Assembly (NCBI GenBank): GCA_032127875.1
Contig: JAQBHI010000049.1
Span: 40,150 to 104,149 of the forward strand
DNA: 64,000 nt
Direction: 5' to 3'
Source of the DNA: Acidobacteriota bacterium
Lineage (GTDB): Bacteria; Acidobacteriota; Vicinamibacteria; Fen-336
In this document: in pieces, positions 591-26,145 of the stretch
Layout of the letters: every line of letters begins with the position of its first letter
Position numbering within the stretch: position 1 is the stretch's first letter
Notes under the pieces: generated by a model
Databases searched by the model: none
What the model was told of the DNA's origin: nothing
The model's input: the letters and a program-made list of their open reading frames with translations, nothing else
Made by a program: the position numbers and the translations under genes

Positions 591-1340
591 TCACTTGTCA
601 ACGACAGCAGCCGACGCGCCGGAGGCGGGACGCAGGCTGCGGTACAGGACGATCATCTCCGCGGGCCGGCCCGCCCCCACGACCCTCCCCTGGTCCAGGA
701 CGATGAGACGATCGCAGAGCGCTTCGAGCAGTGTCGTCTCGTGGCTCACGAACAAGGCCGTGTCGCCACGCTGGCGCCGGCGCTTCAGCTCCGCCAGGCA
801 ACGCTCCCGAAAGGCCTCGTCGCCGACAGCCAGCGCCTCGTCGATCAGCAGGATGGGCGCCTCGGCGCGCAGCGCGACCGTGAAGGCGAGCCGCATCTTC
901 ATGCCCGTGGAGAGGTTCTCGAGACGTGCGTCCGTGAAGCGTTCGAGACCGGCCCCCGCCACGATCTCCGCCGCCTCCGCCACCAGCTTTCGGCGGGGGA
1001 TGCCGAGTACCACCCCGTACAGCAGCACGTTGTCCAGAACGCTCAATGTCCCGTGAAATCCCACCCCCAGCTCCAGGATTGGAGCCACGCGTCCACTGAC
1101 GACCACCGACCCGGCAGTGGGCGGGTAGATGCCCGCCACGATCCGGATCAGCGTCGATTTGCCCGAGCCGTTCTTGCCGAGCACGCCGACGAACTCGCCA
1201 CCTTCGACGCGCAGCGAGACGTCACTGAGGGCGTAGAGCGTCTCGTAGGTGAAGCGGCCCTCGACGAGCCAGCGGCTGAAGCTGCGGCGCCTCTGGTGCG
1301 GGATACGGAACAGCTTCGACAGCCCCGTGACCTCGATCAC
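591..1340 (-). CDS. ABC transporter ATP-binding protein, polysaccharide/O-antigen exporter type (Wzt/KpsT/TagH-like)
   Basis: Walker A GKNGSGKST, ABC signature LSTGMKMRL, Walker B ILLIDE. GTG start overlaps the stop of the upstream permease (GTGA). Confidence 0.85.
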   Translation of the reverse strand: MIEVTGLSKLFRIPHQRRRSFSRWLVEGRFTYETLYALSDVSLRVEGGEFVGVLGKNGSGKSTLIRIVAGIYPPTAGSVVVSGRVAPILELGVGFHGTLSVLDNVLLYGVVLGIPRRKLVAEAAEIVAGAGLERFTDARLENLSTGMKMRLAFTVALRAEAPILLIDEALAVGDEAFRERCLAELKRRRQRGDTALFVSHETTLLEALCDRLIVLDQGRVVGAGRPAEMIVLYRSLRPASGASAAVVDK

Positions 1341-2101
1341 AGCGTCTCCGGGATCAGCCGCTGACGCCGCACGAACGCGTACAGGCCGAGTGCGAACACC
1401 CCCACGCAGAACACCACCGTGAGCACGATGAAGCGCGTGGCCGGGAAGAAGCTGGCGGTCAGGAACCAGCGGATCAGAAAAAGACAGCGCGCGATGGGGT
1501 TCAGGTACAACACTTCAGCCATGGCGTCGGAGTGAACGGGATAGACGACCGGCGTCAACCAGAAAAGCGCCTGAAGAGCCGTGTGCCAAATGAGACCCGT
1601 GTCGCGAAAATCGACGTAGGCGAGGGCAACCAAGAAACCGATCCCCGCCGCCAGCAGGCCGAGGCACATGATCGGCAGGATCGCCAAGGGTGCGAGCGGC
1701 GACAACACGCCCCCGACCGCGAGGACCAGCACCAGCAGCAGGCTGTTGATGGCGAGGGTGATGAATGTGGAGAACATGCCCGAGGCGACCACCACTACGG
1801 CGGGCAGGGGCACCGCCTTCAGGATTCCCGTCTTGCGGGTGAGCGCATCGAGCCCCGAGAACGTGCAGTCCTGGAAGAACGTCCAGAACACGACCCCCAC
1901 GAGAACGTAGATCTCGAAGCCCCGACCGCCGATACCCAGGATCTTGCGGAAGACGGTGAGGTAAATCCCCAGCATCACCAGCGGGCTCAACAGGCCCCAG
2001 GCATAGCCCAGGGCCGAGTCGTTGTATTTGAGGCGGAAATCGCTGACCGCCACCTCGCGCACGATGTCGAGAAGGCGCGCGCGATCACGCCAGGGATGCA
2101 T
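1337..2101 (-). CDS. ABC-2 type transporter permease (Wzm/KpsM-like)
   Basis: Polytopic membrane protein with the typical ABC-2 N-terminus (VAVSDFRLKYNDSALGYAWGLLSPL). I place the start at the internal ATG 2099-2101, 13 nt after the upstream GT4 stop. The ORF-track start at 2356 is an antisense/alternate-frame extension. Confidence 0.8.
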   Translation of the reverse strand: MHPWRDRARLLDIVREVAVSDFRLKYNDSALGYAWGLLSPLVMLGIYLTVFRKILGIGGRGFEIYVLVGVVFWTFFQDCTFSGLDALTRKTGILKAVPLPAVVVVASGMFSTFITLAINSLLLVLVLAVGGVLSPLAPLAILPIMCLGLLAAGIGFLVALAYVDFRDTGLIWHTALQALFWLTPVVYPVHSDAMAEVLYLNPIARCLFLIRWFLTASFFPATRFIVLTVVFCVGVFALGLYAFVRRQRLIPETL

Positions 2102-3227
2102 ACAGGGACTCCATCGCGCGGGCGTACTGAGCGCGCGTGTATCGTACCGCCACGCGGCTGCGTCCGGCCGCTGCCAGCCGATCTCGTAACTCCCGGTCGC
2201 CGAGCAAACGCACGACCGCCTTCGCCAGCGAGGCCGGGTCGCCGGTCCGGAAATGAAGGCCGCTGCGCCCGTCTTCCACGATCTCGGCAGGCCCCCCGGA
2301 GTCCGACACGGCCACGGCGACGCCCGCAGCCATGGCTTCGACGACGACGAGTCCAAACGGCTCCCGGAGCGAGGGGCAGACCACCACGTCGCAGGCGGCC
2401 ATCACCGCGGCGATGTCCGGAACGAAGCCGGTGACGTGCACGCTCGCCTCGAGGCCGAGCTTCTGCCGCAGCCTCAGGACGCCGTCCCTGACCCGGCTCA
2501 CGTGGGGCAGCACGCCGGCATTCAGAGCCCCTCCAACGATCGCGAAGGCCACCTCGGGGAGGCTCGTCTGGATCTCGCGCGCTGCCAGGAGGAAGGTTGC
2601 GTGGCCCTTCATCGCGTCGAAGCGGGCGAACATCGCGACGAGCGGCACGGCCTCGGGGATGCCCAGGCGGAGCCGCACCGCGCGCGACCCCTCGCTGGGA
2701 GCGGCGGGATCGATCCCGACCGGGACCACCTGCGTGCGGGCGGTCAGCTCCGGTGCAAACGCCGCGATTTCGGCGCGCTGCGCCTCCGAGAAGGCAAGCA
2801 CCCGGGCCACAAGGCGGCGTGCCGCCATCCGCCACACAAAGCGTCGCGGCGCCTCGCCAAGATAGTTCACCTGGTAGACGAGCCTCGCTCCCGCGCGAGC
2901 AGCAGGAACGGCGAGCAGCAGCCCGAGCGGATCGGACACATGCAAGAGATGGACGCCTCGCTCCAGCACCAGCTTCCGGAGCCGAAGAGCGACCCGCGCG
3001 TGGCGAAGCCACACCCAGGGGGCCGCCAGGTGCCAAAGCGAGCGAGCCGAAAACCGGATCACGAGGGACTCGACGCCGGCCTCGCGCAAGCTGGCCACGA
3101 GCGGGCCATCGCTCGCGAGCACCACGAGAGGTCGAAACCGCGAGGTGTCGAGGCCGGCGAGCAGATGCAGCAGGGCGTTCTCGGCCCCGCCCAGTTCCGC
3201 GTACAGGTTCAGGTAGAGCACCGACAT
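2085..3227 (-). CDS. Glycosyltransferase family 4 (GT-B fold)
   Basis: N-terminus LYLNLYAELGGAENAL and C-terminal GT1/GT4 donor-binding region (EPFGLVVVEAMAAGVAV). Start taken at ATG 3227. Alternative upstream starts exist at 3257 and 3338. Confidence 0.8.
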   Translation of the reverse strand: MSVLYLNLYAELGGAENALLHLLAGLDTSRFRPLVVLASDGPLVASLREAGVESLVIRFSARSLWHLAAPWVWLRHARVALRLRKLVLERGVHLLHVSDPLGLLLAVPAARAGARLVYQVNYLGEAPRRFVWRMAARRLVARVLAFSEAQRAEIAAFAPELTARTQVVPVGIDPAAPSEGSRAVRLRLGIPEAVPLVAMFARFDAMKGHATFLLAAREIQTSLPEVAFAIVGGALNAGVLPHVSRVRDGVLRLRQKLGLEASVHVTGFVPDIAAVMAACDVVVCPSLREPFGLVVVEAMAAGVAVAVSDSGGPAEIVEDGRSGLHFRTGDPASLAKAVVRLLGDRELRDRLAAAGRSRVAVRYTRAQYARAMESLYASLA

Positions 3228-3288
3228 TGTTTCGCGGGGGCTCGCGCTCTCGTTCATCGGAGCATGCAGTCCGGGCACCCGCCCGAGT

Positions 3289-3987
3289 CTATACAGCCTC
3301 GGACGAGGCTGGCCACACCCGGCGGACGATACGCTCACGGTGGCCGGTCACCGCGACCGCGGCCACATAGCCTGGGCCGACAGGCAGGTCCGCTACTGCC
3401 AGACTCGTGATGCGCCGAAAGCCAGGGGGCCAGTCTTCGATCCCGACCTCGATCTTGTCCAGCCCATGCCCGATCCCCACGCCCAGCGCCTTCAGGCAGG
3501 CTTCCTTGCGGACCCAGCAGCGAAAGAAGGCTGTGGCCCGAGCTGTTTCTGGAAGGGCACGAAGCGCTTCCGCCTCTTTCGTGGCGAAGAAACGGTTGGC
3601 GATCGCCGTACTGTCACGGCCTGCGCAGACCCTCTCGATGTCCACTCCCGGCTCGTCGCGGCAGGTGAATGCGAGCAGGGCCCGGTCACCCGAGTGAGAG
3701 ACGTTGAAGCAAAGCTCGCCGGCGCCAGTCCTGTCCAGGACCGGCTTCCCGTGCGGCCCCTGCGCAAACAAAATGGACTGAGCCGAGGCTCCGAGGTAGC
3801 GGGCGAGAAGCGCGCGGAGCGCGCCGCGCACGACCACGAAGCGTCGGCGCGGTTCGTCGGACCGAAACGCCGCGGCTCGTTCCAGCTCGTCAACCGAGAG
3901 GCGAGCCGCGGCAGCTGCGGCGACATCGCCCAGGGCCACATCCCAGACGTGTACATCGCGTCCCTCGGGCCGGGCGAGGCCGCTCAC
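3289..3987 (-). CDS. 4'-phosphopantetheinyl transferase (Sfp-type)
   Basis: PPTase motifs (GKPVL, FNVSHSGD, WVRKEACLKALG). GTG start overlaps the stop of the NRPS-like gene (GTGA coupling). Confidence 0.75.
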   Translation of the reverse strand: MSGLARPEGRDVHVWDVALGDVAAAAAARLSVDELERAAAFRSDEPRRRFVVVRGALRALLARYLGASAQSILFAQGPHGKPVLDRTGAGELCFNVSHSGDRALLAFTCRDEPGVDIERVCAGRDSTAIANRFFATKEAEALRALPETARATAFFRCWVRKEACLKALGVGIGHGLDKIEVGIEDWPPGFRRITSLAVADLPVGPGYVAAVAVTGHRERIVRRVWPASSEAV

Positions 3988-6512
3988 GCGGAGGCTCCCA
4001 GGCCGGCGAGGAGAGCCTCGATCCGGGTGGCCACGGCGTCGACCGCTGGCTCCTGCAACAACTCCGCGTGGCCCGCGCCGATTCGTTCGACGCGGACGCC
4101 GCCTCGCGTCAGCCGGCGCAGCGCGTGCTCGGCCTCCTCAGCTGCCTCCGGTGGACCCTGGCCTGCAAGGAACAGCGCGAGACGAGCTTCGACGGGGCGG
4201 GGCCGGTAGCGGCGCAGCGCGCGCCGATTCGCTTGCATCAGGGGCGCTTCCACTGGCGAAATGGGCGGCCCTGGCTCGTTGCGGTGCAGCCGATTCGCGA
4301 GCGCGCTGAGAGCGACCCTGAGACGATCCTGCGGCCGGCGCCGGGCACCCAGGGGCAGCGGCGGTGGATCGAGCAGGACCAACAGGCTCACCTCCTGTCC
4401 GCCATGTTCGAGTTGGCGCGCCATCTCCAGAGCTACGGCGGACCCCATGCAGAATCCCCCCAGCAGATACGGCCCCAGTGGCTGGCGTCGCTGCAGGGCA
4501 CGGACGTAGTGAGCGGCGAGACCTGGCACGTCGGTGAGGGGCGGCTCAGCGCCGTCGAAGCCAGGCGCCTGCAGGCCGAAGAATGGCCGGCCCTCGAGTC
4601 GGCTGGCCAGTTTGGAAAGAAACATCACGCCCCCGCCCAGCCCGTGGACGAAGAAGAGAGGCTGGCCTGCGCCACGCGCCCGCAGTGGCACGAGCGGGCC
4701 CCACGCAGCACCTTCGGTCGTGCCGACGTGTTCGGCGAGCGCCCCGGCGCTGGGCGCGTCGAAGAGCACGCTGACCGGGAGGCTCACGCCGAGACGTTCG
4801 TGGAGCCTCGCCATCAGCTGCGCCGCCGCAACCGAGTCTCCTCCGAGCTCGAAGAAGTCGTCCTCTGCCGAGACACGCTGTACGCCAAGTACGTTCGCGA
4901 GCTGCTCGGCTATCGCCCGCTCCAACACCGACGCGGTTGAAGACGCGGCCGACTCGGGGCCCGCTTGCACGGCAGGGCGAGCGTCGCTCGTCAAGCCCAG
5001 CATCGCCGCGAGTCCGTTGCGCGGCACTTTACCCGAGGCATTCCGCGGCAGCGCGTCCCGGAAGACGATTTTCGACGGCACCTTGACCGCCGCAAGACGT
5101 GCCGCGACGAAGGCCCGCAAGGTCGCCGCCACGACGGCAGCACTCGGACGCAAGACCACGACGGCAGCCAGATCCTCCCCGAGGCGAGGATGGGCCACTC
5201 CGAAGGCGGCGGCTTCGGCCACGTCGGGGTGCGCAAGCAGCGCCTCGTCGACCTCGCCTGGCGAGATCTTCTCTCCACCGCGATTCACCTGCTCCTTGAG
5301 CCGGCCAGTGATCCAGAGGTCGCCATCGGCATCGAGCCGCCCAAGGTCCCCCGTCCGGAGCCAGTGCCCGAAAAAGGCTCCGCTCGTAGCTTCTGGATCC
5401 CCGTCGTAGCCGGCCATCACGCCCGGCCCCTCGACCACGATCTCGCCGACCAAGCCCGTCGGCAAAGGCCGGCCGGAGGCGTCGACGATCGCTAGCGAGG
5501 GCCCGACGGATCGGCCTACGCTACCGGGCTTGCGGCCCGCGTGCTTTTCGGTCACTGCGGTGACGAGCCCGGCCTCGGTGAGGGCGTAAGCCTCCAGGAC
5601 CGGCACGCCGAAAAGGGCCTCTACGCGTTCCTTTAGCGAGCTCGGCAGGGGGGCAGCTGCGGAGCGCACGAAACGCAGCGGCGCGCGATGGCGCAGCTCT
5701 TCGGGGTCGCCGGCACGATCCAGGATCGCCTGGTAAACGGCCGGTGAGGCGCCGAAATAGGTGGGCATCGCCTCTTGAAACCAGCGGCGGAAACGCTCGG
5801 CGGCGAAGCCCGGTGACACGAAGATGCTGCTTCCCGAAACGAGTGGGAACGCGAGAGTGTGGTAGAGAGCGGCCAGATGGAAGAGCGGCGAGACCGTGAA
5901 GCCCCTGTCGTCAGCCGTTAGCCCCCACACGCGGCAGGCGTCCCTGCCGGCTCCGCAGAACTGAGCATGCGTGATCCGCACGCGCCGCGGCTCACCGGCC
6001 GTGCCGGACGTGCACAACACGAAGGCGGCGTCGGCCGGCGACGCGGCCGACACCGCGGCGAGACCACCTGGATCACCTCGCCCATGCAGGTCGAAGAGAC
6101 CCGCAGGCCCGCTCGGGCGCGATTCGAGCTCGAGCACTTCAATCCCGAGCTCGCGCGCCGCCGCAGCCGCCGGCACGCTGCTGCGCTGGGGCACGGCGAT
6201 GGCACGGGCGCCCAGGCCGCTCAAGACCTGGCGGGCTTCGTGAAGCGGCAGCCCGATGGGAAGGGGCGCCGCGATGGCCACAGCGGTGACCGACAGAAGG
6301 GCTGTGACGGTCGCTGCCTCGTCCGGAAGCGCCAGCGCAATCCGGTCTTCTCGACCAAAGCCCCGCCCAGCCAGCAGGCCGGACACCCTCTCGACGTGAC
6401 CTGCCAGCTCGCCGTAGGTGAGAGGCGGTTGGCTCGGGGCCCTCAGGGCCTCGGCACGCGGCCGCTCGCGCGCGTGCTGCTCCAGAAGCCGAACGAGGGT
6501 GTTCCCGTACAT
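3984..6512 (-). CDS. NRPS-like tridomain protein: adenylation (AMP-binding) - peptidyl carrier protein - thioesterase
   Basis: A-domain cores LTYGEL, TSGTAGEPRRV, YALTE, LRTGDLGRLDADGDL, GRLKEQVNRGGEKISPGEVDEAL and PRNASGKVPR. PCP motif FFELGGDSV. Alpha/beta-hydrolase TE domain (FFVHGLGGGV ... LLGGFCMGSAVA ... GAGHAEL). 842 aa, ATG start at 6512. Confidence 0.85.
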   Translation of the reverse strand: MYGNTLVRLLEQHARERPRAEALRAPSQPPLTYGELAGHVERVSGLLAGRGFGREDRIALALPDEAATVTALLSVTAVAIAAPLPIGLPLHEARQVLSGLGARAIAVPQRSSVPAAAAARELGIEVLELESRPSGPAGLFDLHGRGDPGGLAAVSAASPADAAFVLCTSGTAGEPRRVRITHAQFCGAGRDACRVWGLTADDRGFTVSPLFHLAALYHTLAFPLVSGSSIFVSPGFAAERFRRWFQEAMPTYFGASPAVYQAILDRAGDPEELRHRAPLRFVRSAAAPLPSSLKERVEALFGVPVLEAYALTEAGLVTAVTEKHAGRKPGSVGRSVGPSLAIVDASGRPLPTGLVGEIVVEGPGVMAGYDGDPEATSGAFFGHWLRTGDLGRLDADGDLWITGRLKEQVNRGGEKISPGEVDEALLAHPDVAEAAAFGVAHPRLGEDLAAVVVLRPSAAVVAATLRAFVAARLAAVKVPSKIVFRDALPRNASGKVPRNGLAAMLGLTSDARPAVQAGPESAASSTASVLERAIAEQLANVLGVQRVSAEDDFFELGGDSVAAAQLMARLHERLGVSLPVSVLFDAPSAGALAEHVGTTEGAAWGPLVPLRARGAGQPLFFVHGLGGGVMFLSKLASRLEGRPFFGLQAPGFDGAEPPLTDVPGLAAHYVRALQRRQPLGPYLLGGFCMGSAVALEMARQLEHGGQEVSLLVLLDPPPLPLGARRRPQDRLRVALSALANRLHRNEPGPPISPVEAPLMQANRRALRRYRPRPVEARLALFLAGQGPPEAAEEAEHALRRLTRGGVRVERIGAGHAELLQEPAVDAVATRIEALLAGLGASA

Positions 6513-6590: not shown

Positions 6591-8189
6591 GTGAGCCCGC
6601 TCCTTCGGCCCGAGCAACGACAGCATCTCGTCGCGCGCAGCTACCGCGTGCTCTCGGCTACGGTCGGTGGAGGGCCCGCACGGCGAATTGCCCGCCTGCA
6701 CCCGGCCCTCGACGAGGAAGCGGCCTATCAAGGCTGGCGCCGGGCGCAGAGGCAGGTCGCAATCGACTCCCCCACCCCGGCCCCGCCTCAGAATAGACCC
6801 CTCATCAGCGTCGTCATGCCGATCTTCGACGCGCCGGAGCGATTCCTGCGTGAGGCGATCGGGTCGCTGATCGAGCAGTCGTACCCGGAATGGGAGCTGT
6901 GTGCGGCCGACGGCGGCCCGGGCGGATCCGCTGGGAGCCGCGTCCTGCAGGAGTGGGCCCGGGTGGATCGTCGCGTCCGCGTCGTCGCGGTCGGCGAGAA
7001 CCGCGGCATCGCCGGCAACTCGAACGCGGCCCTTCGAATGGCACGCGGCGAGTTCGTCGCCCTGCTGGATCAGGACGACCTGCTGGAGCCCGACGCACTT
7101 CTGGCCCTGGTCGCGAGGCTCGACGAGGAACCGGGGCTCGACCTCCTCTACTCCGACACGGACAACGTGACGCCCTGGGGCGACCTCTACGCTCCCTTCT
7201 TCAAGCCAGACTGGTCCCCGGAACTACTCCTCTCCGCAAACTATCTCGCGCACCTGACTCTCGTGCGGCGCTCCGCGCTCGAGGCTGTCGGCAGCTTCGA
7301 CCAGAGCCTGGACGGCGCTCAGGACTGGGACCTGCTGCTGCGCGTCACCAAGAAGACCTCTCGGATTGCCCACGTGCCTCGGATCCTCTACCACTGGCGG
7401 TCGCTCCCGACCTCGTGCGCCTCGAGCCTGGATGCCAAACCCTATGCCCGCGAGGCGCAGCGGCGGGCGGTACAGGCTCACCTGGCAAGGGGCGGTCTCG
7501 CCGCCAGCGTGGAAGTCGCCGCGACCGGCCGGGTGCGGGTCGAACTACAGATGAAGGAACTGCCGAGCGTCACGCTCGTCCTGGCCAAGGGCGTCGCGCG
7601 CGCCCACGCCATGAGCTTCGCGGCCAGCGGCTTTCGCGGCCTCGACGTCGCCGAGCACGCGCGAGACGCGCGGGGCGAAGTGCTGGTGATCTGGGATCCC
7701 GGTTTCGAGCCCGACGACGAGGCCTGGGCCCGTGACCTCGCTGCCTGGGCGCTCGACCCCGAGATTGGCGCCGCAGGGGGGCTGGCGGTGGACAAGGACG
7801 GCCGCGTGGATTCCATCGGCTACGTGGCGAACGAGGGTATCGCCACGCCCGTTTTCGCCGGTGCTCAGGCCGATGCATGGACGCCCCTGGGTAGAGCGGA
7901 CTGGTACCGCAACCTGCTGGCGCCGTCGCCGCGCGCGTTTGCCACACGGCGGGAGATCTGCGAGCGCCTGGGCAGCCTGGAGGCATCACCGCAAGGGATC
8001 CTGGACTATGGAGTGAGATTGCGACGCGCCGGGCTGCGCACCATGGTCGTGCCGACGGCCCGGCTGGTTCGCTGTGGGCCGGCGAGCGCGTTGCCTGCGG
8101 TGCGCGGGGACTCCCTCGCGGGAACCGACCCTTGCTTCAACCCCAACCTCGCGCCGTCGTCGACGCTGCCTCGCCCTCGCGAAGACTAG
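6591..8189 (+). CDS. Glycosyltransferase family 2 (GT-A) with long C-terminal extension
   Basis: GT2 core ISVVMPIFDAPERFLREAIGSLIEQSY ... LDQDDLLEPDAL (DXD). GTG start. Divergent from the NRPS-like gene. Confidence 0.75.
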   Translation: MSPLLRPEQRQHLVARSYRVLSATVGGGPARRIARLHPALDEEAAYQGWRRAQRQVAIDSPTPAPPQNRPLISVVMPIFDAPERFLREAIGSLIEQSYPEWELCAADGGPGGSAGSRVLQEWARVDRRVRVVAVGENRGIAGNSNAALRMARGEFVALLDQDDLLEPDALLALVARLDEEPGLDLLYSDTDNVTPWGDLYAPFFKPDWSPELLLSANYLAHLTLVRRSALEAVGSFDQSLDGAQDWDLLLRVTKKTSRIAHVPRILYHWRSLPTSCASSLDAKPYAREAQRRAVQAHLARGGLAASVEVAATGRVRVELQMKELPSVTLVLAKGVARAHAMSFAASGFRGLDVAEHARDARGEVLVIWDPGFEPDDEAWARDLAAWALDPEIGAAGGLAVDKDGRVDSIGYVANEGIATPVFAGAQADAWTPLGRADWYRNLLAPSPRAFATRREICERLGSLEASPQGILDYGVRLRRAGLRTMVVPTARLVRCGPASALPAVRGDSLAGTDPCFNPNLAPSSTLPRPRED

Positions 8190-9196
8190 GCAATCACCGG
8201 CGGCAGGTCGCCGATCGGCAGTCCCGCCAACTCGCGCAGCGCGCGCGCCACCTCGATGCGGACCATGCGCTTGCGCCAGGCGTACACGAGGTCCGCGTTG
8301 TCGAGGGGCTTCGCTGGCTTGTAGGCAATGCCGGCAGCCATCTCGATCGCTTCGGCGTCGAGAATGCGGCCTTGCAGGAAGCTCTCGGCCCCCGTCGCCT
8401 CGACGGGATGGGTGTGCACAGCGCCGAGAACGATGCGCGATTCTTCCACGACGCTGCCCGGCCCCAGCCTGACTGCGGCGGCGACACCGACGATCGGGAA
8501 ATCGATCGAGCCGCGACGCCGGAGCTTGCGATAGGTCGCCTTCCAGCCGGCGCAGTCCGGCACGTGAATCTGCGTCAGGATTTCCTCGGGTCGCTTGGTG
8601 AGGTAGTGGATGCCGTCCGGGCCGTAGAGCGCGCTCACGGGAATGCGGCGCTCGCCGCTGGTACCGACCAGAGTCACTTCGGCGCCGAGCGTGATCATCA
8701 CCGGCGCCGTGTCGGAGGACGAAAGCGCCCAGCAGATCGACGAGCCCGGGGCAACCAGGCAGATGTCGCCATCCTTCTTCATGCAATAGCCGATCGAGGC
8801 GCGCCAGAACTCAGACTGGTTGTAGTAGTTGCAGCGCGTGTCGACGCACAGGTTGCCGCCGATGGTGCCGGCGTTGCGCAGCGGCGGCGAAGAAACCAGG
8901 CCTGCCGAGCGTGCGATCGACGGCCAGCGGCTTCGGATCGCCGGATGCTCCGCGACGGCCGTGAGCGTCGCCAGCGCCCCCAGCTGGAGGCCGCCGTTGG
9001 CGTGGATCGCGCCCGCGCCCTCGAGTTTGCGAACACTGACGAGAAGCTTTGGCGTGAACTGCTTCCGCTTCATGTTCGGGTAGAGATCGGTGCCGCCCGC
9101 AACGACCATCGCATCGGGACCGTGGTCGGCCAGGATCTGCGCTGCCTCGCGCGCCGTCTTCGGGGCGACGAAGCGAAACGCCGGCAGTCTCATCAT
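8186..9196 (-). CDS. Molybdenum hydroxylase FAD-binding medium subunit with Cys-rich insertion (HcrB/CoxM-like)
   Basis: FAD_binding_5 N-terminus (MMRLPAFRFVAPKT ... VVAGGTDLY) and CO_deh_flav_C region. Insertion CVDTRCNYYNQSEFWRASIGYCMKKDGDICLVAPGSSIC. The ATGATG start at 9191-9196 overlaps the large-subunit stop. Confidence 0.8.
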   Translation of the reverse strand: MMRLPAFRFVAPKTAREAAQILADHGPDAMVVAGGTDLYPNMKRKQFTPKLLVSVRKLEGAGAIHANGGLQLGALATLTAVAEHPAIRSRWPSIARSAGLVSSPPLRNAGTIGGNLCVDTRCNYYNQSEFWRASIGYCMKKDGDICLVAPGSSICWALSSSDTAPVMITLGAEVTLVGTSGERRIPVSALYGPDGIHYLTKRPEEILTQIHVPDCAGWKATYRKLRRRGSIDFPIVGVAAAVRLGPGSVVEESRIVLGAVHTHPVEATGAESFLQGRILDAEAIEMAAGIAYKPAKPLDNADLVYAWRKRMVRIEVARALRELAGLPIGDLPPVIA

Positions 9197-11679
9197 CGGC
9201 GCGCCCCCTGGCCGGAGAATTCGGGAGCGACCGAGCTGGCGCCGCGATGACCCTCGGGGACAGGCGCGGTGGCCGGATCGAGAGCCTCTACCGCGACGCT
9301 TTCCGGGTATTCGAAGCGCGGCAGCTGCGGGGCGCGATAGCGGCCCTCGAGCGCGGCCACGATTTTCTCCGGTGTGATGGGCACCTCGTCCACGCGCGCG
9401 CCGAGCGCTTCGTAGATCGCGTTCGCCACGGCGGGGATCACCGGAAGCAGCGGCCCCTGGCCACACTCCTTGGCGCCATACGGCCCTTCCGGATCCAGGG
9501 TCTCGACCAGGATCGAGTCGACCGGCGGCATCTCGAGCGTGGTGGGGCTCTTGTAGTCGAGCATCGACGGGATCTTGTGCAGGCCCTTGCGAAAGACCTG
9601 CTCTTCCATCAGCGCCTCGCCAAGCGCCATGTAGACGGAGCCCTCGATCTGGCCCAGCACCAGCATCGGGTTCAGGGACCGGCCGATGTCGTGCGCGATC
9701 CACACCTTGTCCACGCGGACGATGCCGGTCTCTTTGTCGGCCGAGAGCTCCACGGCCGCGGCGGAGTAGGAATATGTCGGCGTCGGGCCCACACCCGAGC
9801 CCTTCCATTTCGCGACGCTCCTGGGCGCCTTGTACGAGCCCACGGACCCGAGCGTGCCGTGCGCGGACTCGGCGAGCACGACGGCCTCCGCGAAACAGAG
9901 CGAGCGGCCTGGGTCGGCGGCGTCGAAGATGCGGCGTCCGCTCGCCCGCAGGCGGCCGACGGAAAGCTCGAGCTTGCTCGCTGCGGCCTCGAAGATCAGC
10001 TTACGCAGCTTGCGCGCGGCCTGGATCGCCGCGTTGCCGGTCATCAGCGTGACGCGCGACGAGTAGGAACCGAGGTCCACGGGCGTCAGGTCGGTGTCGG
10101 CGGTCACGACGCGAATGTCCTCGAACCCGATGCCAAGCTCCTCGGCCACGATGTAGGCGAGGATCGAATCGGAGCCCTGGCCGATGTCCGTCGAACCGCA
10201 GAACACCGTGACGCCGCCGCCGCGATCCACTTTGATCTGCACGCCCGACTGCGGCATGGCGTTCCAGTAGATCGGCAGGCCAGCGCCCGTCAGGTACGCG
10301 GACGCCGCGATCGCGAGGCCCCTGCCGGGCCCGAGCTTACCGTGCTTCTCTCGATAGCCGCTCTTCTCGATGACTCGCTCCAAACAGGCCTTGAGCCCGA
10401 TCGTGCGCACGTACATGTGGTTGGCAGTGACCGTGTACGGCTCGAGGCAGTTGTCGATCCGCCACTGCGCCGGCTCGAGGCCCAGATCCTCACAGAACTT
10501 GTCGATGTGGCATTCGAGAGCAAAGCGTGGCTGAGGCGTTCCGTGGCCACGCTTGGGTCCGCAGGGCGGCTTGTTGGTGAAGACGCGGACGCCCTCGAAG
10601 CGATAGCGCGGGATCCTGTAGGTCACCGTCTGCAGCGCGCCGGTGTAGTAGAGACTCGCGACGCCATAACTGCCATACGCGCCGCCGTCGAGGGCCGTCT
10701 TGAAGTGCATCGCCGTGATCGTGCCGTCCTTCTTGAGGCCGGTCCTCACCCACATCTTCACGGGATGGCGTCCGCGATGGCAGTAGAAGACCTCCTCTCG
10801 CGTCAGCGTCAGTTTCACCGGCCGGCCCGTCTTCATCGAGAGCTTGCAGGCCACGATCTCGTGGCCGAACGGGTCGCTCTTGCCGCCAAAGCCGCCGCCG
10901 TTCGGGCAAGCAATCACGCGCAGCTGCGAGGGCGGCAGCTCGAGCACCTTGGCCGCCGCGCGGTGCACGTAGTGCGGCGTCTGGGTCGAGGACCACAGCG
11001 TCAGCTTCCCGTCCGCGCCCGCCGCGGCGACGCACGCGTGCTGCTCCATCGGCAAATGCGTGTTGCCCTCGAAGTAGAAGTTGTCCTCGCGAACGTGCTC
11101 GGCCTCGGCAAAGCCCGCTTCGACGTTGCCGAAGTCGAAAGACACCTCCTTGTGGACGTTGCCGCGCGGGCCGTACTCGTGGATCCGCGCCTCCCGAATT
11201 TGAGGGGATGCGGCTTCCAAGGCCCCCCCGCCGGCTAACGCCTCATCAATAGACATGAACGCCGGCAGCAGCTCGTACTCGACTTCGATCAGCCCGCAGG
11301 CGGCCTCGGCGGTCTCCTCGTCGATCGCCGCGACCGCCGCGACCGGATCCCCGACGAAGCGGACCTTGTCGATGCACAGCGCGTGCTCGTCCTGGCTGAC
11401 CGGCAGGATGCCGAAGGGAATCGGCAGCTCGCTGCCCACGAGCGTTGCGAGGACGCCATTCAGCGCTGCGGCCCTCGAGACGTCGACGCGCTTGATCCTG
11501 GCATGGGGATGGGGGGAGCGCAGCAGCTTCGCGAAGGTCATGCGCGGCAGCACCAGGTCGTCGGCGAACACGGTCTGGCCGGTGACCTTAGCCGCGGCGT
11601 CGACCTTGAGCAGCGACCGGCCGATCACGCTCAGCGGCTCGCCCGCCTCGCCGGGCGTGGGAATTCGCGGATCAGCCAC
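9193..11679 (-). CDS. Molybdenum hydroxylase molybdopterin-binding large subunit (xanthine dehydrogenase / aldehyde oxidase family)
   Basis: Ald_Xan_dh_C-type N-terminus (IGRSLLKVDAAAKVTGQ), GGGFGGK motif, about 830 aa. Most plausible start is GTG at 11677-11679, which overlaps the small-subunit stop. The ORF-track ATG is at 11742. Confidence 0.85.
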   Translation of the reverse strand: MADPRIPTPGEAGEPLSVIGRSLLKVDAAAKVTGQTVFADDLVLPRMTFAKLLRSPHPHARIKRVDVSRAAALNGVLATLVGSELPIPFGILPVSQDEHALCIDKVRFVGDPVAAVAAIDEETAEAACGLIEVEYELLPAFMSIDEALAGGGALEAASPQIREARIHEYGPRGNVHKEVSFDFGNVEAGFAEAEHVREDNFYFEGNTHLPMEQHACVAAAGADGKLTLWSSTQTPHYVHRAAAKVLELPPSQLRVIACPNGGGFGGKSDPFGHEIVACKLSMKTGRPVKLTLTREEVFYCHRGRHPVKMWVRTGLKKDGTITAMHFKTALDGGAYGSYGVASLYYTGALQTVTYRIPRYRFEGVRVFTNKPPCGPKRGHGTPQPRFALECHIDKFCEDLGLEPAQWRIDNCLEPYTVTANHMYVRTIGLKACLERVIEKSGYREKHGKLGPGRGLAIAASAYLTGAGLPIYWNAMPQSGVQIKVDRGGGVTVFCGSTDIGQGSDSILAYIVAEELGIGFEDIRVVTADTDLTPVDLGSYSSRVTLMTGNAAIQAARKLRKLIFEAAASKLELSVGRLRASGRRIFDAADPGRSLCFAEAVVLAESAHGTLGSVGSYKAPRSVAKWKGSGVGPTPTYSYSAAAVELSADKETGIVRVDKVWIAHDIGRSLNPMLVLGQIEGSVYMALGEALMEEQVFRKGLHKIPSMLDYKSPTTLEMPPVDSILVETLDPEGPYGAKECGQGPLLPVIPAVANAIYEALGARVDEVPITPEKIVAALEGRYRAPQLPRFEYPESVAVEALDPATAPVPEGHRGASSVAPEFSGQGARR

Positions 11680-12207
11680 GGCTGACGCCGTCTTCGAGCC
11701 CGACCGTCTCCAGCGCCACCGGCAAGGGCGGATCCTCGCCACGCATCCGCGCCGCAGCCAACTCGACCGCCTCGAAGATCTTCAGATACCCGGTACAGCG
11801 ACACAGGTTCCCGGCCAGCGCTTCGGCGATCTCGGCACGATCGGCTTCAGGCTTCTTGCGGAGCAGCGCCTCGGCCGTGAGCAGAAAGCCCGGCGTGCAA
11901 TAGCCGCACTGCGCCGCGCCCAGGTCCGCGAACGCCTGCTGCAAAGGGTGCAGGGTCGCGCCATCGGCCATCGCTTCGACCGTGCGGATCTCGTGACCCT
12001 CGCACTCCACCGGCAGGCTCAGGCAGGACAGGATCGGCTTGCCGTCGACGAGCACCGTGCACGTGCCGCACTCCCCAAGCTCACAGCCGTGCTTCGTGCC
12101 CATCAGACCCAGCTCTTCGCGAATCACCTCGAGCAGGGTGTGGTGCACCGGCGCCAAGCACTCCCGCTCTTCGCCGTTGACCCTCAGCCGGATCCGCTGT
12201 TTCTCCA
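11672..12207 (-). CDS. [2Fe-2S] iron-sulfur small subunit of molybdenum hydroxylase (HcrC/CoxS-like)
   Basis: Plant-ferredoxin-type CELGECGTCTV and second cluster motif QCGYCTPG ... CRCTGY. GTG start at 12205-12207, preceded by GGAG 8 nt upstream. Confidence 0.8.
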
Positions 12208-12222
12208 CCTCAACCGCTCCTG

Positions 12223-13854
12223 ATGCTGCCTTTGAACGCCCGGTCAAACCCGGATTATAGCGCCCGGCACGAGCCCAGCAAACCGCTATACTGCCCGGCC
12301 TTGGTTCCCCGCGAGGCCGACCGCCGCCAGACCGCCCTCGTCGTGGCGTTGGGGATCGCCCTCTGGGCTCCCCGCCTGGTCCTGCAGTTCGCGCCACCGG
12401 CGCCCTACGACGAGGGCAACACGGTGGTGGCGGCCTGGCGCGTACTCGAGGGGGAGCGGCTGTATCGCGACGTCTGGCAGATGCACCCTCCGGGAACGGC
12501 CTGGAGCCTGGCCTTGGCATTCCGCCTGCTGGGAACGACGCTCTTCACCGAGCGCCTGGTCAAGGCCGCCCTCGCGGGCATCGCTCTCGGCCTGCTCCAC
12601 CGCTTCGCGCGGCGGATGGCGGGGCCGTGGCTCGCGGCGAGCGCGGTCGTCGCGGGAGCGCTGCTTCCGCCGGCAACCCCGTTCCTGCGTCCCAACGATC
12701 CGGCGTTCGTCGCGAGCCTTGCGGCCAGCGCGCTGGTGCTGGCGCGGGACCGCCTAGGTCGCTGGGGATCGCCGGCGATCGGAGCGCTCCTGGGCCTGAC
12801 CGCGGCCTATCGGCTGGACTTCGGCGCCGGTTCCGCGCTGGCGATCGCGGCGTTCCTGGTAGCGCGGGGCGAGGCGCGCCGTCTTCTCGCCGTGATCCCG
12901 GGCGCCGCCATTGCGCCCGCGGCCGGCGCTGCGGCACTCCTGCTCCAGGGAGTGGCCGGCTCTGCGTGGGAACAGATGTTCGTGTTTCCAGCTACGGCCT
13001 ACCCCGCTCAGCGCGGCATGCCGCTGTACGACCCTGCTGTGGTCCTGCTGCCCCTGGCGCTGTGCGGCGCGGCGCTCCTCGCAGCCTGGGCCGGGAGGCG
13101 CCACGATCGCGTCCGCCACGAGGCGCTGCTCCTGACGGGCTGCCTGGGACTGGGCTACCTCGGGTACGCGCTGGTGCGCCCTGACTTGGAGCATACGCTC
13201 CCGGCGCGGGTGCTGGGCCTGCTGGCCGGGACCGGGCTTGTGTCGGCAGCAAAGGGTATCGTTCCGGTCACCTCGCGCCGGCTGCTCCAGGCCGTGGCCG
13301 TGGCCGCGTCCTGCGGCGTCGTCGCGCCGGCGCTGCCGACGCTCGTGGAGACCGCGCGGCTGGGACTGATGCTGCTCCGGCCGGTAGCCCGGGAGCCGCA
13401 GTGGGCGAGAGCGGGCCCGCTGCTCCGCGTCGACACCGACGCGGCGGCAATGGCCCGACTTGTCGCCGAGCGCACCCGTCCGGGCGAGCGGATCTTCGTG
13501 GGCAACGAGCGCCACGATCGCATCCTTGTCAACCACGTGCTCCTCTACTTCCTCGCAGATCGGCCGTCGGTGACGCGCTACTACAACCTCCACCCCGGTC
13601 TAGCCACCCGCGCCGACATCCAGGAGGAGATCGTCGAGGCCATCGAACGGCAGGCTGTCCGGATCGTCGTGCTCTGGAGCGCTCCGCTTTGGGACGAACC
13701 CAACGCAACCGCGCGGCCGGCCGCCGGTACGCTCGACGCGGCTCTCCGCTCCCACTTCGAAGCGCGGGAGACGCGAGGCCGCTACACGCTCTGGGAGCGC
13801 TCGTCTGCCGGACCCGGCGCTGTCAACACCAGGACGGCCAGCGGCGCCAGATGA
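12223..13854 (+). CDS. Polytopic membrane protein, putative GT-C-type glycosyltransferase (start uncertain)
   Basis: 543-aa ORF with 10 or more hydrophobic helices and a DEG motif after the first helix. Antisense frames are fragmented R/P-rich junk. The listed start lies only 16 nt from the divergent hydroxylase gene, so the true start may be downstream. Confidence 0.5.
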   Translation: MLPLNARSNPDYSARHEPSKPLYCPALVPREADRRQTALVVALGIALWAPRLVLQFAPPAPYDEGNTVVAAWRVLEGERLYRDVWQMHPPGTAWSLALAFRLLGTTLFTERLVKAALAGIALGLLHRFARRMAGPWLAASAVVAGALLPPATPFLRPNDPAFVASLAASALVLARDRLGRWGSPAIGALLGLTAAYRLDFGAGSALAIAAFLVARGEARRLLAVIPGAAIAPAAGAAALLLQGVAGSAWEQMFVFPATAYPAQRGMPLYDPAVVLLPLALCGAALLAAWAGRRHDRVRHEALLLTGCLGLGYLGYALVRPDLEHTLPARVLGLLAGTGLVSAAKGIVPVTSRRLLQAVAVAASCGVVAPALPTLVETARLGLMLLRPVAREPQWARAGPLLRVDTDAAAMARLVAERTRPGERIFVGNERHDRILVNHVLLYFLADRPSVTRYYNLHPGLATRADIQEEIVEAIERQAVRIVVLWSAPLWDEPNATARPAAGTLDAALRSHFEARETRGRYTLWERSSAGPGAVNTRTASGAR

Positions 13855-15101: not shown

Positions 15102-15823
15102 GGCGACCCGAATGGGCGCGGTGCAAAAGCTCCGCGCTCGCAGGAGAGCTGCAGCCAGCGCACGTCCGGCCGCGACGCCGCGAGCAGCGCCGCGGCCGCC
15201 GCAGAGCAGCGCGGGGCGTGCGCGACGTAGACCCGCCGGGGGAACAGGTAGGACGCAGCGAACCCGTCCGCGAAGTCGAAGAAGCGTCCCGTCCGCAGGA
15301 CCAGCAGGGCGCCGGCGTCGCCCGAGCTGCGCTGGAAAGCCTCGATTGCCCGGTAGTCCGGCTCCGAGCTGTGCCGGCCGTAAACGTGCAGACGCCGCTC
15401 CGCGAAACCCAGTCCCGCCAGCTCGGCCTCGCGAAGGCCGTCGCGCACCAGCCGCACCGGCGCGAGGGCGATCGAATACAGGAGGAGCAGCGCAACCAGC
15501 CGCCGGCGCCAGGTCTCGCTGGCGGACTCGTCGTCGCGTTGGCCGGTGACGGCCCGAGCCAGGAACACGCCGCGTGCCGAGGCCAGCGCCCATGCGCCGG
15601 TGGCCACGACCGCCGCCGGGCCGCAGAGGGAGTGCAGGATCCGAGTCTGCACCGCCAGCTCGGCCCGAAACACCGCGCCGTGGATGGGGAGGCGCAGGTA
15701 GAGCCACTGGATCACCGCAACGAACGCGTCTGGCGACAGCAGCGCCGCGCCGAAGAACGGCGCCGCGAACGCCACCAGCCAGGCGTTCGCGAGCCAAGGG
15801 CTGCGCTCGCAGCGGCCGGTCAT
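15098..15823 (-). CDS. Integral membrane protein, hypothetical
   Basis: 241 aa and hydrophobic. Translationally coupled on both sides (ATGA overlaps at 15820-15823 and 15098-15101). Confidence 0.5.
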   Translation of the reverse strand: MTGRCERSPWLANAWLVAFAAPFFGAALLSPDAFVAVIQWLYLRLPIHGAVFRAELAVQTRILHSLCGPAAVVATGAWALASARGVFLARAVTGQRDDESASETWRRRLVALLLLYSIALAPVRLVRDGLREAELAGLGFAERRLHVYGRHSSEPDYRAIEAFQRSSGDAGALLVLRTGRFFDFADGFAASYLFPRRVYVAHAPRCSAAAAALLAASRPDVRWLQLSCERGAFAPRPFGSP

Positions 15824-17034
15824 GGCAGGAGCCGCCGGCTGAGCAGGGACGCGGCGACGAACTCGCCGGTCACGCGGTGGCCGCGGGCGTTCCAGTGGAT
15901 GCCGCTCGAGAAGTACGCTCCGCCGAGCAAGCCCCGATCGGCAGCGCGCAGGGCGACACTGGGATCGATCAGCGGCAGATCCGCCTTGGCCGCAATGGAG
16001 ACCAGACGCCGGCGCACCGAGGCGGGGTCGGCATCAGCGTCGGACCATCCGTAGCGTTGGCAGGCGATGCGCCAGTTGCGGTCCGCGACCTCTACGCGGT
16101 CCGGCACGTAAACGACGGCGAAACGGGCGCCATCGGCGACGACCTCGTCGCGCATCAGGGCCAGCAGACGCGCGGTGCGCTCCCACGCTTCCTCCACGAA
16201 CTGCGGCGGCCGCCGCTCGAACACCCGCCGCTCGTCAGGCGGCGCGTGCTTCCGAAGCGGCGGCCCGGCGCCCAGGCGCGAGAGCAGGCCGTGGACCCAC
16301 GGGGCGCCCTCCCCCAGCCGGGAACGCGCGAAGGCGCGCAGGTCCGACGCCGCCCCTTCGTCGTTGCCGATGTCCGGCGGGGCCCTGATCGCCACTCTGG
16401 GCACGGGCACGCCGCGCAGGACCAGGGCGCCCGCTTCCGCGACGAAGTAAGGCTTGCGACCGCGCCAGTAGTTGTCGCGTGCGTTGTGCACGACGTCATT
16501 GCCAAAGAAGAAGAGCAGCACGAGACCCGGGTGCAGCGAGCGGCCCAGCGTCCGATACAGCAGCAGCTCCTGGTCCGAGGCGTAGCCGGCCACGCCGCCA
16601 TTCACAACCTCGGCGCGTCGGCCCGCCCGCAGCAACTGCTCCTCGAGCACGCGGGCTACGCCGAGGGGTTCTGGAATGGCCCACCCCTCCACGAACGAGT
16701 CGCCCAGCGCGAGGACGCGGAGCGTGCCGGGAGCCGGCCGCTCGGTACGATCGCGGTCCCGGAGGCCAGCGGCGTTGATCGCGATATCGGCGTCGCCCTC
16801 GGGGAAGCCGACCCGCTCCCGGACACCGGGACGATGAGACCAGCCGAGCAGCGCGTCGTGCCGAAAGTAGGCCGACAGCGGCGCGCCTCGGTGATTGAGG
16901 TGATAGCGGATCCGCAGGGCGACATCGACCACGAGCAGCGCGACCAGGACGCTGACGAAGGCGAGCGCGAGCTCCGCGCGCCCGACCCGTCGCGAGCGTT
17001 CAGCGATGGCCGAGGGCCCGCCTGAGGCCGGCAT
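15820..17034 (-). CDS. SGNH/GDSL-family hydrolase with N-terminal membrane anchor
   Basis: N-terminal TM helix, then GDS block LALGDSFVEG and GND block LFFFGNDVV. Glycan O-acyl esterase / acyltransferase-like. Confidence 0.65.
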   Translation of the reverse strand: MPASGGPSAIAERSRRVGRAELALAFVSVLVALLVVDVALRIRYHLNHRGAPLSAYFRHDALLGWSHRPGVRERVGFPEGDADIAINAAGLRDRDRTERPAPGTLRVLALGDSFVEGWAIPEPLGVARVLEEQLLRAGRRAEVVNGGVAGYASDQELLLYRTLGRSLHPGLVLLFFFGNDVVHNARDNYWRGRKPYFVAEAGALVLRGVPVPRVAIRAPPDIGNDEGAASDLRAFARSRLGEGAPWVHGLLSRLGAGPPLRKHAPPDERRVFERRPPQFVEEAWERTARLLALMRDEVVADGARFAVVYVPDRVEVADRNWRIACQRYGWSDADADPASVRRRLVSIAAKADLPLIDPSVALRAADRGLLGGAYFSSGIHWNARGHRVTGEFVAASLLSRRLLP

Positions 17035-17890: not shown

Positions 17891-17938
17891 GACGCGGGCT
17901 CGATCCGACCGGCGAGGAAACGGGCGCCGGCGGCGGGG

Positions 17939-21129: not shown

Positions 21130-23160
<2,031 letters not shown>

Positions 23161-23201
23161 GAGGAGGTCCAAGGTTCAGTCTCCTTCGTCCGAAAAAGGG
23201 G

Positions 23202-23900: not shown

Positions 23901-23982
23901 GGCGGTCTTCTCCTGCGTGCCGGTTGGAAAAGTCCAGTTCGAGCCTCGAAGTCCGGCCGCGAAGCGGCGTCGCTCGCATCCC

Positions 23983-26145
<2,163 letters not shown>

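Follow-up and report, generated by a model that had tools for sequence, protein, structure and literature searches.

This locus raises the question of whether a cysteine that occupies the position of the catalytic serine in a thioesterase (TE) domain is the true nucleophile and, if so, what it says about the release of the acyl product. The domain is encoded in the window, which is the whole stretch of 64,000 nucleotides from an Acidobacteriota bacterium that was analysed, by a gene on the minus strand (3984..6512). The 842 amino acid product is an NRPS-like adenylation–carrier–thioesterase protein (A-T-TE), in which an acyl-CoA-ligase-like A domain (aa 10-495) is followed by a carrier domain with a GGDS motif that contains Ser560 (PP-binding, aa 533-596) and, directly after it, by a type I TE domain (aa 617-834). 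The TE region was assigned to the Pfam family PF00975 (Thioesterase) at 108.5 bits, where the cutoff is 26.4, and no condensation (C) domain was found in the 842-aa protein in the Pfam domain scan. A-T-TE is a small stand-alone enzyme with the TE domain at its end.

The residue in question, Cys688, is located in a GFCMG motif and is encoded by a TGC codon on the minus strand at positions 4449..4451, where the plus strand reads GCA; its sequence context in A-T-TE is PYLLGGFCMGSAVALE. In a phmmer search against the PDB, the residue paired with Cys688 was the catalytic Ser in the GWSLGS motif of the skyllamycin TE (7crn), and in AB3403 (4zxh) it was the Cys in GGWCFGG. An AF2 model of the TE domain (pLDDT 94) contains an elbow that consists of strand 82-87, Cys88 and helix 89-103 (domain numbering, in which Cys88 corresponds to Cys688), as well as lid helices 127-142 and 157-168, and the best 50 Foldseek matches of the model were all TE domains of NRPS, PKS or FAS proteins. 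The PDB alignment and the model elbow thus agree with the sequence-only reading, which had placed a Cys at the nucleophile position.

That reading had also pointed to the GAGHAELL region, which it located correctly, as the place to look for the partners of the triad. The base, His815, is situated in this motif after the last core strand (codon CAC, 4068..4070, minus strand), while the acid, Asp715, is found 27 residues after Cys688 and directly after beta6 (codon GAT, 4368..4370, minus strand), at the site named “position I” in previous work (PMC11298585). In the AF2 model, the corresponding residues Asp115 and His215 follow strands 108-114 and 206-211, respectively. In the PDB alignments, Cys688, Asp715 and His815 coincide with the triad positions of TEs of known structure. 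All three columns are conserved among 71 homologous sequences, with C in 42 and S in 29 at the nucleophile position (C/S in 71/71), D in 61 and E in nine at the acid position (D/E in 70/71), and H in 65 and A in five at the base position. Cys688 is very probably the nucleophile of a canonical Cys-His-Asp triad composed of Cys688, His815 and Asp715.

If Cys688 were non-catalytic, either the neighbouring Ser691 would act in its place or the domain would be degenerate and inactive. Ser691 (codon TCC, 4440..4442, minus strand) is only three residues away, in GFCMGS, and the numbering under which it had been put forward as a possible nucleophile is correct. Its column is not conserved, with G in 54 of the 71 homologues and S, V, A or C among the close orthologues, and the residue sits inside a helix, away from the elbow in the AF2 model. 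Ser691 was therefore ruled out as the nucleophile, and since the three triad columns are all conserved, so was a degenerate TE. A sequencing error or chance feature at the Cys688 codon was also rejected because TGC is present at the same position in four orthologous loci, the proteins of which are 53-88% identical. The conservation of the Cys in orthologues, which had been suggested as a check, was seen as GFCMG in 9/9 orthologues of A-T-TE. On this evidence, a non-catalytic Cys688 is barely credible.

We compared the frequency of Cys and Ser at this position among the relatives of A-T-TE. To our knowledge, few Cys-type TEs have been studied. The statement in the sequence-only reading that such TEs are uncommon holds among characterised TEs, of which about 2% are of the Cys type (PMC13288461), but not in the A-T-TE family, where 64 of 100 A-T-TE homologues have a Cys nucleophile, as do 78 of the 198 TE domains from the 150 nearest representative proteins. 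About 8-12 switches between Cys and Ser were estimated among 99 homologues. Close to this TE in sequence, Cys is thus at least as frequent as Ser and the two have been repeatedly interchanged, so that Cys is a common state in the relatives of the domain and is not unusual there. Because the two residues alternate within the family, a distinct release chemistry may not follow from the nucleophile residue by itself, and a Cys at the elbow is, taken alone, a weak indicator of exotic chemistry.

Cys nucleophiles had been tied in the earlier reading to unusual reactions such as the formation of strained lactones, and the position of the triad Asp provides a better discriminator of beta-lactone and beta-lactam TEs than the Cys elbow. 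Were A-T-TE to form a strained four-membered ring in the manner of the ObiF and SulM TEs, it would share with them the Cys nucleophile in a GxCxG elbow. In ObiF and SulM, the triad Asp is relocated to a loop after beta7 and a Gly is found at the canonical beta6 site, whereas A-T-TE retains the conserved Asp715 after beta6, and Asp or Glu is present at this site in 70 of the 71 sequences. In addition, the motif of SulM is Gln-Cys-Asn, which is replaced by Phe-Cys-Met in A-T-TE, and the protein contains neither a C domain nor an amino-acid-type A domain from which a beta-hydroxy or beta-amino acyl chain could come. Since Asp715 occupies the canonical site, like its counterparts in AB3403 and in the macolacin and polymyxin TEs, the strained-ring reading is without support; the association of Cys with strained lactones is not transferable to this TE, and we consider such a product very improbable.

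The TE of AB3403 from Acinetobacter baumannii (4zxh), which is the third-best PDB sequence match (E 7e-17), is also of type I, uses a Cys as nucleophile and has its Asp after beta6, and its GGWCFGG is aligned to GGFCMGS of A-T-TE. The two proteins differ in that AB3403 has a C-A-T-TE organisation and an A domain for amino acids, while A-T-TE has no C domain, an acyl-CoA-ligase-like A domain and a genomic context of glycosyltransferase (GT) and ABC transporter genes that AB3403 does not share. A similar comparison can be made to the TEs for macolacin and polymyxin, MacB-TE and PmxB-TE. Likened by residue numbering, the triad of MacB-TE (Cys89-His218-Asp116) has the same spacing as the triad in A-T-TE (Cys88-His215-Asp115). 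Cys TEs with this triad geometry catalyze ordinary macrolactamisation in MacB and PmxB, and the C89S variant of MacB-TE hydrolyses rather than transfers, indicating that the Cys favours transfer over hydrolysis in that enzyme. The substrate of MacB-TE and PmxB-TE is a decapeptide from a multimodular NRPS, whereas A-T-TE is a single loading module that makes no peptide. Unlike TEs that end peptide-forming modules, A-T-TE has no upstream C domain, although a related protein at another locus (L078) has one.

The best PDB match of the A domain is the oxalyl-CoA synthetase AAE3 (5ie0, 6qjz), with an E-value of 4e-81 over the full length, and some JGI names read oxalate-CoA ligase. The residues that confer specificity for oxalate in AAE3 are gone: Ser289 corresponds to Ala286 and His319 to Gly315 or a gap in 9/9 orthologues, and His216 is replaced by Ala214 in the A-T-TE clade. 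Because these residues have been replaced by Ala or Gly, oxalate was ruled out as the acid for the A-T-TE clade; the oxalate signature is retained in many of the more distant A-T-TE homologues. The product of the A domain differs from that of AAE3 in being a carrier thioester rather than a CoA thioester.

The A-T-TE gene is surrounded by genes with predicted roles in carrier priming, glycosyl transfer and export. The GTG start codon of a gene for an Sfp/HetI-type 4'-phosphopantetheinyl transferase (PPTase; 3289..3987, minus strand) overlaps the stop codon of the A-T-TE gene (GTGA). On the same strand are genes for a GT4 glycosyltransferase (2085..3257), which likely starts with the ATG at 3257 to give a protein of 390 aa that matches its orthologues, a Wzm-like ABC-2 permease (1337..2101), for which the ATG at 2101 is the likely start (254 aa), and a Wzt/TagH-like ABC ATPase of 249 aa without the extra C-terminal domain (591..1340). 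A gene for a soluble GT2 glycosyltransferase of 532 aa (6591..8189, plus strand) is divergent from the A-T-TE gene and kept beside it in orthologous loci. No hydrophobic segments were found in this GT2, and a membrane-embedded processive synthase was therefore rejected. Among the subset of window ORFs that were scanned, no priming transferase of the WecA/WbaP type was recovered; such a gene may be located elsewhere in the genome.

The gene order GT2 / A-T-TE / (PPTase) / GT4 / Wzm / Wzt was identified in the window and in five other loci (L001, L002, L003, L076, L079). In L078, PPTase, GT4 and Wzm genes are located behind a gene for a C-T-TE protein, the TE of which is 43% identical to that of A-T-TE and reads GFCMGS. 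With this locus included, a T-TE(Cys) protein, a PPTase, a GT4 and a Wzm/Wzt-like ABC exporter recur together in seven loci. The PPTase, the GT4 and the Wzm/Wzt-like ABC-2 exporter are thus linked to the TE clade, usually along with the divergent GT2. More distant A-T-TE homologues, of both the Cys and the Ser type, have no GT or ABC genes in their surroundings, which indicates that the link to sugars is specific to this clade. In uncultured soil bacteria, one all-Cys TE clade is associated with a cassette that encodes glycosyltransferases and an ABC-2 exporter, and this recurring linkage is more interesting than the Cys itself.

The architecture of the protein and the conserved synteny make a transferase-like release onto a sugar acceptor plausible, as had been proposed in the sequence-only reading. 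In such a pathway, the A domain would activate a carboxylic acid other than oxalate, which would be loaded on Ser560 of the carrier domain after priming by the co-encoded PPTase. The acyl group would then move to Cys688 by an energy-neutral transthioesterification, and the acyl-S-enzyme would be attacked not by water but by a hydroxyl or amine group on a sugar or glycan that GT4 and GT2 have assembled. Finally, the ABC-2 transporter would export the acylated glycoconjugate. As there is no C domain, plain hydrolysis would consume ATP only to give back the acid that was activated, and non-hydrolytic acyl transfer is plausible. Taken as a whole, the explanation of a canonical Cys-His-Asp TE that ends A-T-TE and catalyzes acyl transfer has a probability just short of even, while a glycosyl acceptor for the acyl group is a more tentative suggestion.

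Intermolecular O-acylation is an established activity of TEs (PMC12979598). In the side-chain-attaching TEs of FR900359, necroxime and salinamide, in TE_B of OocS and in the TE of Pks13, the acyl group is handed to an external hydroxyl rather than to water, and some of the TEs with this activity are part of stand-alone single modules. OocS TE_B (7r0x) ranks fourth among the PDB sequence matches of the A-T-TE thioesterase and has a Ser (GYSMG) at the position of Cys688; the TE of Pks13, which transfers mycolate to trehalose, is also among the PDB matches. The acceptors of the O-acylating TEs are macrocycles, ACP-bound intermediates or trehalose, and we know of no intermolecular O-acylating TE in a Wzm/Wzt cassette.

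The acid could also be tethered to the carrier and modified there by enzymes acting in trans, such as GT4 and GT2, whereafter hydrolysis or a simple lactonisation by the Cys-TE would set it free as a natural-product glycoside for export through the ABC-2 transporter, with no glycan being acylated. Hydrolytic release after on-carrier tailoring is known from NikP1 in nikkomycin biosynthesis, which is also an A-T-TE protein. Such a route is consistent with the resemblance of GT4 to the small-molecule glycosyltransferases MshA and BshA, and with L078, where the cassette comes after a multi-domain NRPS (A-T-Ox, C-T-TE) that resembles a small-molecule assembly line. DrrAB-type ABC-2 pumps are exporters of small natural products, and the ATPase is matched by the DrrA model at 102 bits, but the best NCBIfam model for this protein is the galactan Wzt, at 158 bits (cutoff 400), and the best model for the permease is Wzm, at 58.8 bits (cutoff 380). 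All matches of the ABC and GT proteins are below the curated NCBIfam cutoffs, and the ABC pair has its best scores against the Wzt/Wzm and TagH models. Furthermore, two glycosyltransferases, including a GT2 that is long, two-lobed and soluble, suit the building of a glycan better than a single decoration, and the preference for transfer that the Cys confers on MacB-TE also argues against a hydrolytic release. Tailoring on the carrier followed by release of the acid is rather unlikely, although it retains an appreciable probability.

Another type of acceptor would be a second carrier-bound unit that attacks the acyl group held by Cys688, such that dimers, oligomers or a macrodiolide-type product are formed, as by the conglobatin and enterobactin TEs and the fungal A-T-TE quinone and furanone synthetases. 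The fungal NRPS-like dimerising enzymes typically are A-T-TE proteins that lack a C domain, and iterative O-acylating TEs are known (Cong-TE, Ela-TE, ThiA-TE). The A domain of A-T-TE is, however, of the acyl-CoA-ligase type and not of the aryl-pyruvate type. Genes in the cassette neither need nor explain oligomer chemistry, and the invariable association with GT4 and Wzm/Wzt would be left unaccounted for, all of which makes self-condensation unlikely.

Should a glycan or glycolipid be the acceptor of the TE, the cassette would provide a new and testable path to surface glycoconjugates that bear acyl groups, and its six genes would form a compact set to express in a heterologous host. Acyl transfer to a sugar would resemble in its logic the D-alanylation by DltABCD and the addition of glycine to Vibrio lipid A by AlmEFG, where the small acid that an adenylating enzyme places on a carrier protein is subsequently esterified to a surface polymer or glycolipid. 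Dlt and Alm consist of separate proteins and rely on transferases of the MBOAT or LpxL type, whereas the TE is fused in A-T-TE. No description of this cassette was found in a limited full-text literature search. We suggest, more speculatively, that the T-TE(Cys), PPTase, GT4 and Wzm-Wzt set (with GT2) might be an undescribed route to decorate or prime an exported surface glycan. The acid would be held on the carrier of the enzyme itself and moved by the Cys-TE in the cytoplasm to the nascent glycan or glycolipid before ABC export, where it could form, for instance, a cap at the non-reducing end or a lipid-like anchor, in a fused, TE-based counterpart of Dlt and Alm. By the same conjecture, the A-T-TE proteins with an oxalyl-CoA-synthetase-like A domain, most of which have a Cys nucleophile, might constitute a large uncharacterised class of carrier-dependent acyltransferases; this wider family is widespread.

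The A-T-TE (adenylation–carrier–thioesterase) protein of 842 amino acids is encoded on the minus strand at positions 3984-6512, with Pfam matches to AMP-binding (residues 10-369), AMP-binding_C (residues 420-495), PP-binding (residues 533-596, with a GGDS motif and Ser560) and Thioesterase (PF00975, residues 617-834, 108.5 bits, cutoff 26.4). At positions 4449-4451 the plus strand is GCA, hence TGC on the coding strand, which encodes Cys688 inside PYLLGGFCMGSAVALE. The sequence-only reading described this correctly, down to its Ser691 numbering and the GAGHAELL stretch. The cysteine is conserved in orthologues, with GFCMG present in nine of nine down to 53% identity, and all four orthologous loci compared use TGC as the Cys codon; Cys688 is thus not an error.

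We compared the protein to all PDB chains with phmmer, which aligned Cys688 with the catalytic serine of the skyllamycin TE (GWSLGS, 7crn), with the alanine of its mutant 7dxo, and with the cysteine of the AB3403 termination module (4zxh), in which GGWCFGGAIAYE aligns to GGFCMGSAVALE. Residues 601-842 were modeled with AlphaFold2 from 71 sequences (mean pLDDT 94, pTM 0.91); the model contains a nucleophile elbow formed by strand 82-87, Cys88 and helix 89-103 (domain numbering), with Asp115 after strand 108-114, His215 after strand 206-211 and a two-helix lid between these two regions. The best 50 Foldseek matches in PDB were all NRPS, PKS or FAS thioesterase domains. Among the 71 aligned sequences, column 688 contains only Cys (42) or Ser (29), while the triad partners are Asp715 (Asp in 61, Glu in 9) and His815 (His in 65). 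The neighboring Ser691, which had been named as the competing candidate for the nucleophile, was ruled out by its variable column, with Gly in 54 of the 71 sequences and S, V, A or C among close orthologues. Alignment, modeled elbow and triad conservation concur with the proposed placement of a cysteine at the nucleophile position, and Cys688 is very probably the nucleophile of a canonical Cys-His-Asp triad in a type I TE.

Structural papers describe two arrangements of Cys-type TEs. In ObiF and SulM, which form beta-lactones and beta-lactams, the triad Asp has moved to a loop after beta7 and Gly occupies the usual site, whereas AB3403 combines Cys with Asp at the usual site after beta6. [quoted passage not shown] Its triad spacing also equals that of MacB-TE (Cys89-Asp116-His218), which performs ordinary macrolactamization and turns to hydrolysis in the C89S mutant, and of PmxB-TE from polymyxin biosynthesis, which is 90.6% identical to MacB-TE (PMC13288461). 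The window TE thus belongs with the canonical-geometry Cys-type type I TEs, of which AB3403 is the solved and MacB and PmxB are the characterized examples; membership in the ObiF/SulM class was rejected, since the Asp is not relocated. The association with strained lactones suggested earlier is therefore not carried over. A tendency that may be shared is resolution of the thioester acyl-enzyme by a nucleophile other than water. As a TE, the domain is a further member of a kind that is already known.

Cys-type TEs account for about 2% of known TEs in a 2026 study (PMC13288461), and the literature on the ObiF and SulM TEs also describes them as less common. The statement that Cys-nucleophile TEs are uncommon nevertheless fails for this family: Cys was found in 64 and Ser in 36 of 100 whole-protein homologues with a TE, almost all of them A-T-TE, and Cys in 78 and Ser in 109 of 198 TE domains in the best 150 of 33,170 hits to the TE domain (from 1.84 billion representatives), both samples being seeded by a Cys query and silent on TEs in general. 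The closest full-length TE matches among these best 150 are all of the Cys type (P0006, P0130, P0131, P0137, P0139, P0144, P0165, P0191). Cys is the ordinary state in the TE branch around the window protein. On neighbor-joining trees of 99 homologues, the Cys/Ser state changed 8-12 times, as compared to about 29 times with shuffled labels, so the state is inherited, with repeated switches; a single base separates the codons for the two residues. Many of the nearest TE relatives carry two or three TE-like domains in a single protein (P0129, P0133, P0142, P0146, P0147, P0150, P0154, P0160, P0181 and others in the representative library). Some have Cys in both copies; elsewhere, the nucleophile position of the second copy holds Asp, Gly, Asn or Gln and its Asp position Asn or Gly, which suggests that this copy is probably degenerate or repurposed.

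The A domain is of the acyl-CoA-ligase rather than the amino-acid type. Its best NCBIfam models, FadD7 and fatty-acyl-CoA ligases, all score under cutoff, and its best PDB matches are the oxalyl-CoA synthetases 5ie0 (E 4e-81) and 6qjz (E 6e-80). The oxalate pocket of AtAAE3 comprises Val215-His216, Cys288-Ser289, Ala313-Met314, His319 and Lys500, with Ser289 and His319 specific to oxalate enzymes (PMC8905533). The window protein and all eight other orthologues have Leu213-Ala214, Ala285-Ala286, Ala310-Leu311 and Gly315 or a gap at the equivalent positions. With Ser289 and His319 replaced, oxalate is an unlikely substrate, and the A domain is strictly speaking no oxalyl-CoA synthetase; the replacements are small and suggest a more spacious pocket. 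Among the more distant A-T-TE homologues, many retain the oxalate-like signature (FHIHGL, RSSS, TEA[S/A]HQM; compared with residues 207-216, 281-291 and 308-320 of the window protein), with either Cys or Ser as TE nucleophile, and the Acidobacteriota clade of the window has lost the oxalate-specific residues. The homologues outside the window with these residues of the plant and yeast enzymes (P0019, P0022, P0024, P0025, P0028, P0031, P0035 and others) constitute an extensive, uncharacterized group of stand-alone A-T-TE proteins spread over many taxa, in which an adenylation domain of the oxalate type is joined to a carrier and a TE.

Downstream on the minus strand follow an Sfp/HetI-type PPTase (3289-3987), with a GTG start that overlaps the A-T-TE stop codon TGA, a GT4 glycosyltransferase (2085-3257), an ABC-2 permease (1337-2101) and an ABC ATPase (591-1340), while a soluble GT2 of 532 amino acids (6591-8189) is divergent. 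The mechanical ORFs of GT4 and permease were longer than the orthologous genes (by 3257-3338 and 2101-2356, minus strand); the true starts are likely ATG 3257 (390 amino acids) and ATG 2101 (254 amino acids), the latter giving a 17-nt overlap with the GT4 stop that is also present in L001. For the ABC pair, Wzt/Wzm and TagH models score best, yet under cutoffs. The gene order GT2, A-T-TE, PPTase, GT4, permease, ATPase recurs at five loci: L001, labeled uncultured Acidobacteriota (88% identity), L076 (76%), L002 and L003 (53-54%, without the PPTase) and L079, where the flanking genes differ. At a sixth locus, L078 (3-3958 of a Logan SRR22387798 contig, cut at both ends, with the assembly line seen in part), the PPTase-GT4-permease cassette stands behind a C-T-TE protein (P0139), whose TE reads GFCMGS and is 43% identical to that of the window; the preceding gene ends in A_C-T-Ox (AMP-binding_C, carrier, nitroreductase-type Ox). 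Identities to the window in blastp were 48-52% for GT4, 59% for the permease, 64% for the ATPase and 38-45% for the PPTase. GT4 and the exporter thus accompany the TE clade, whereas the loading part is variable. The GT4/exporter context was absent from homologues outside the clade, including those in an Anaerolineae genome, Tolypothrix, two radical-SAM-adjacent loci and one CapK-like-ligase-adjacent locus.

In the window, a canonical Cys-His-Asp type I TE ends a self-contained loading module whose gene is linked to those for sugar transferases and an ABC-2 exporter. As the module has no condensation domain, hydrolysis would only give back the acid that had been activated, at the expense of ATP, and non-hydrolytic release is expected. 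The acyl group would pass from the carrier thiol to Cys688, and from there onto a sugar, glycan or glycolipid that GT4/GT2 would have made, through one of its hydroxyls or amines; export of the acylated product would follow. A sugar acceptor for such transfer is a reasonable but tentative proposal. Precedents exist in TE domains that act as intermolecular O-acyltransferases, including the FR900359, necroxime and salinamide side-chain TEs, Cong/Ela/ThiA-TE and OocS TE_B (PMC12979598), the last of which (7r0x) was the fourth-best PDB match in phmmer. The main rival is that a small glycosylated acid is tethered, tailored and released and that the ABC-2 pump exports natural products; it is kept plausible by the multi-domain NRPS in L078 and by a match of the ATPase to the DrrA model, which is weaker than those to Wzt/Wzm and TagH. 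Self-condensation by the TE, beta-lactone formation and a non-catalytic cysteine are less likely or excluded. Full-text searches of one literature library found no description of a cassette with an NRPS-like T-TE, GT4 and Wzm/Wzt-like exporter, and it is possible, if rather doubtful, that the cassette acylates or primes an exported glycoconjugate by a route not described before. The residue Cys688 itself is of lesser interest than the conserved cassette and the large A-T-TE family, which are somewhat more so.

Genes for a three-subunit molybdoenzyme of the xanthine-dehydrogenase/CO-dehydrogenase type (2Fe-2S, MoCo-binding and FAD-binding; 8186-12520, minus) adjoin the divergent GT2. They are syntenic in L001, L003 and L076 and absent from L002 and L079, and are therefore probably not part of the cassette. 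Between these genes and ferritin, the window contains an extra block relative to L001 (12181-17938), with a PMT_2-like GT-C membrane glycosyltransferase (12181-13854, plus), an SGNH/AlgX-like hydrolase or O-acetyltransferase (15820-17124, minus), an NAD-dependent sugar epimerase/dehydratase (17000-17938, minus) and unannotated ORFs; this block may be another set of genes for modifying envelope glycans. A VTT-domain (DedA-like) membrane protein gene (23202-24035, minus) stands between two tandem, full-length genes for H+-translocating pyrophosphatases (21130-23175 and 23983-26154, both minus); in L001-L003, a single H_PPase gene adjoins the VTT gene. A second AMP-binding gene, a stand-alone acyl-CoA-ligase type (43582-45390, plus), adjoins a creatininase-family gene and is by its position unrelated to the cassette.
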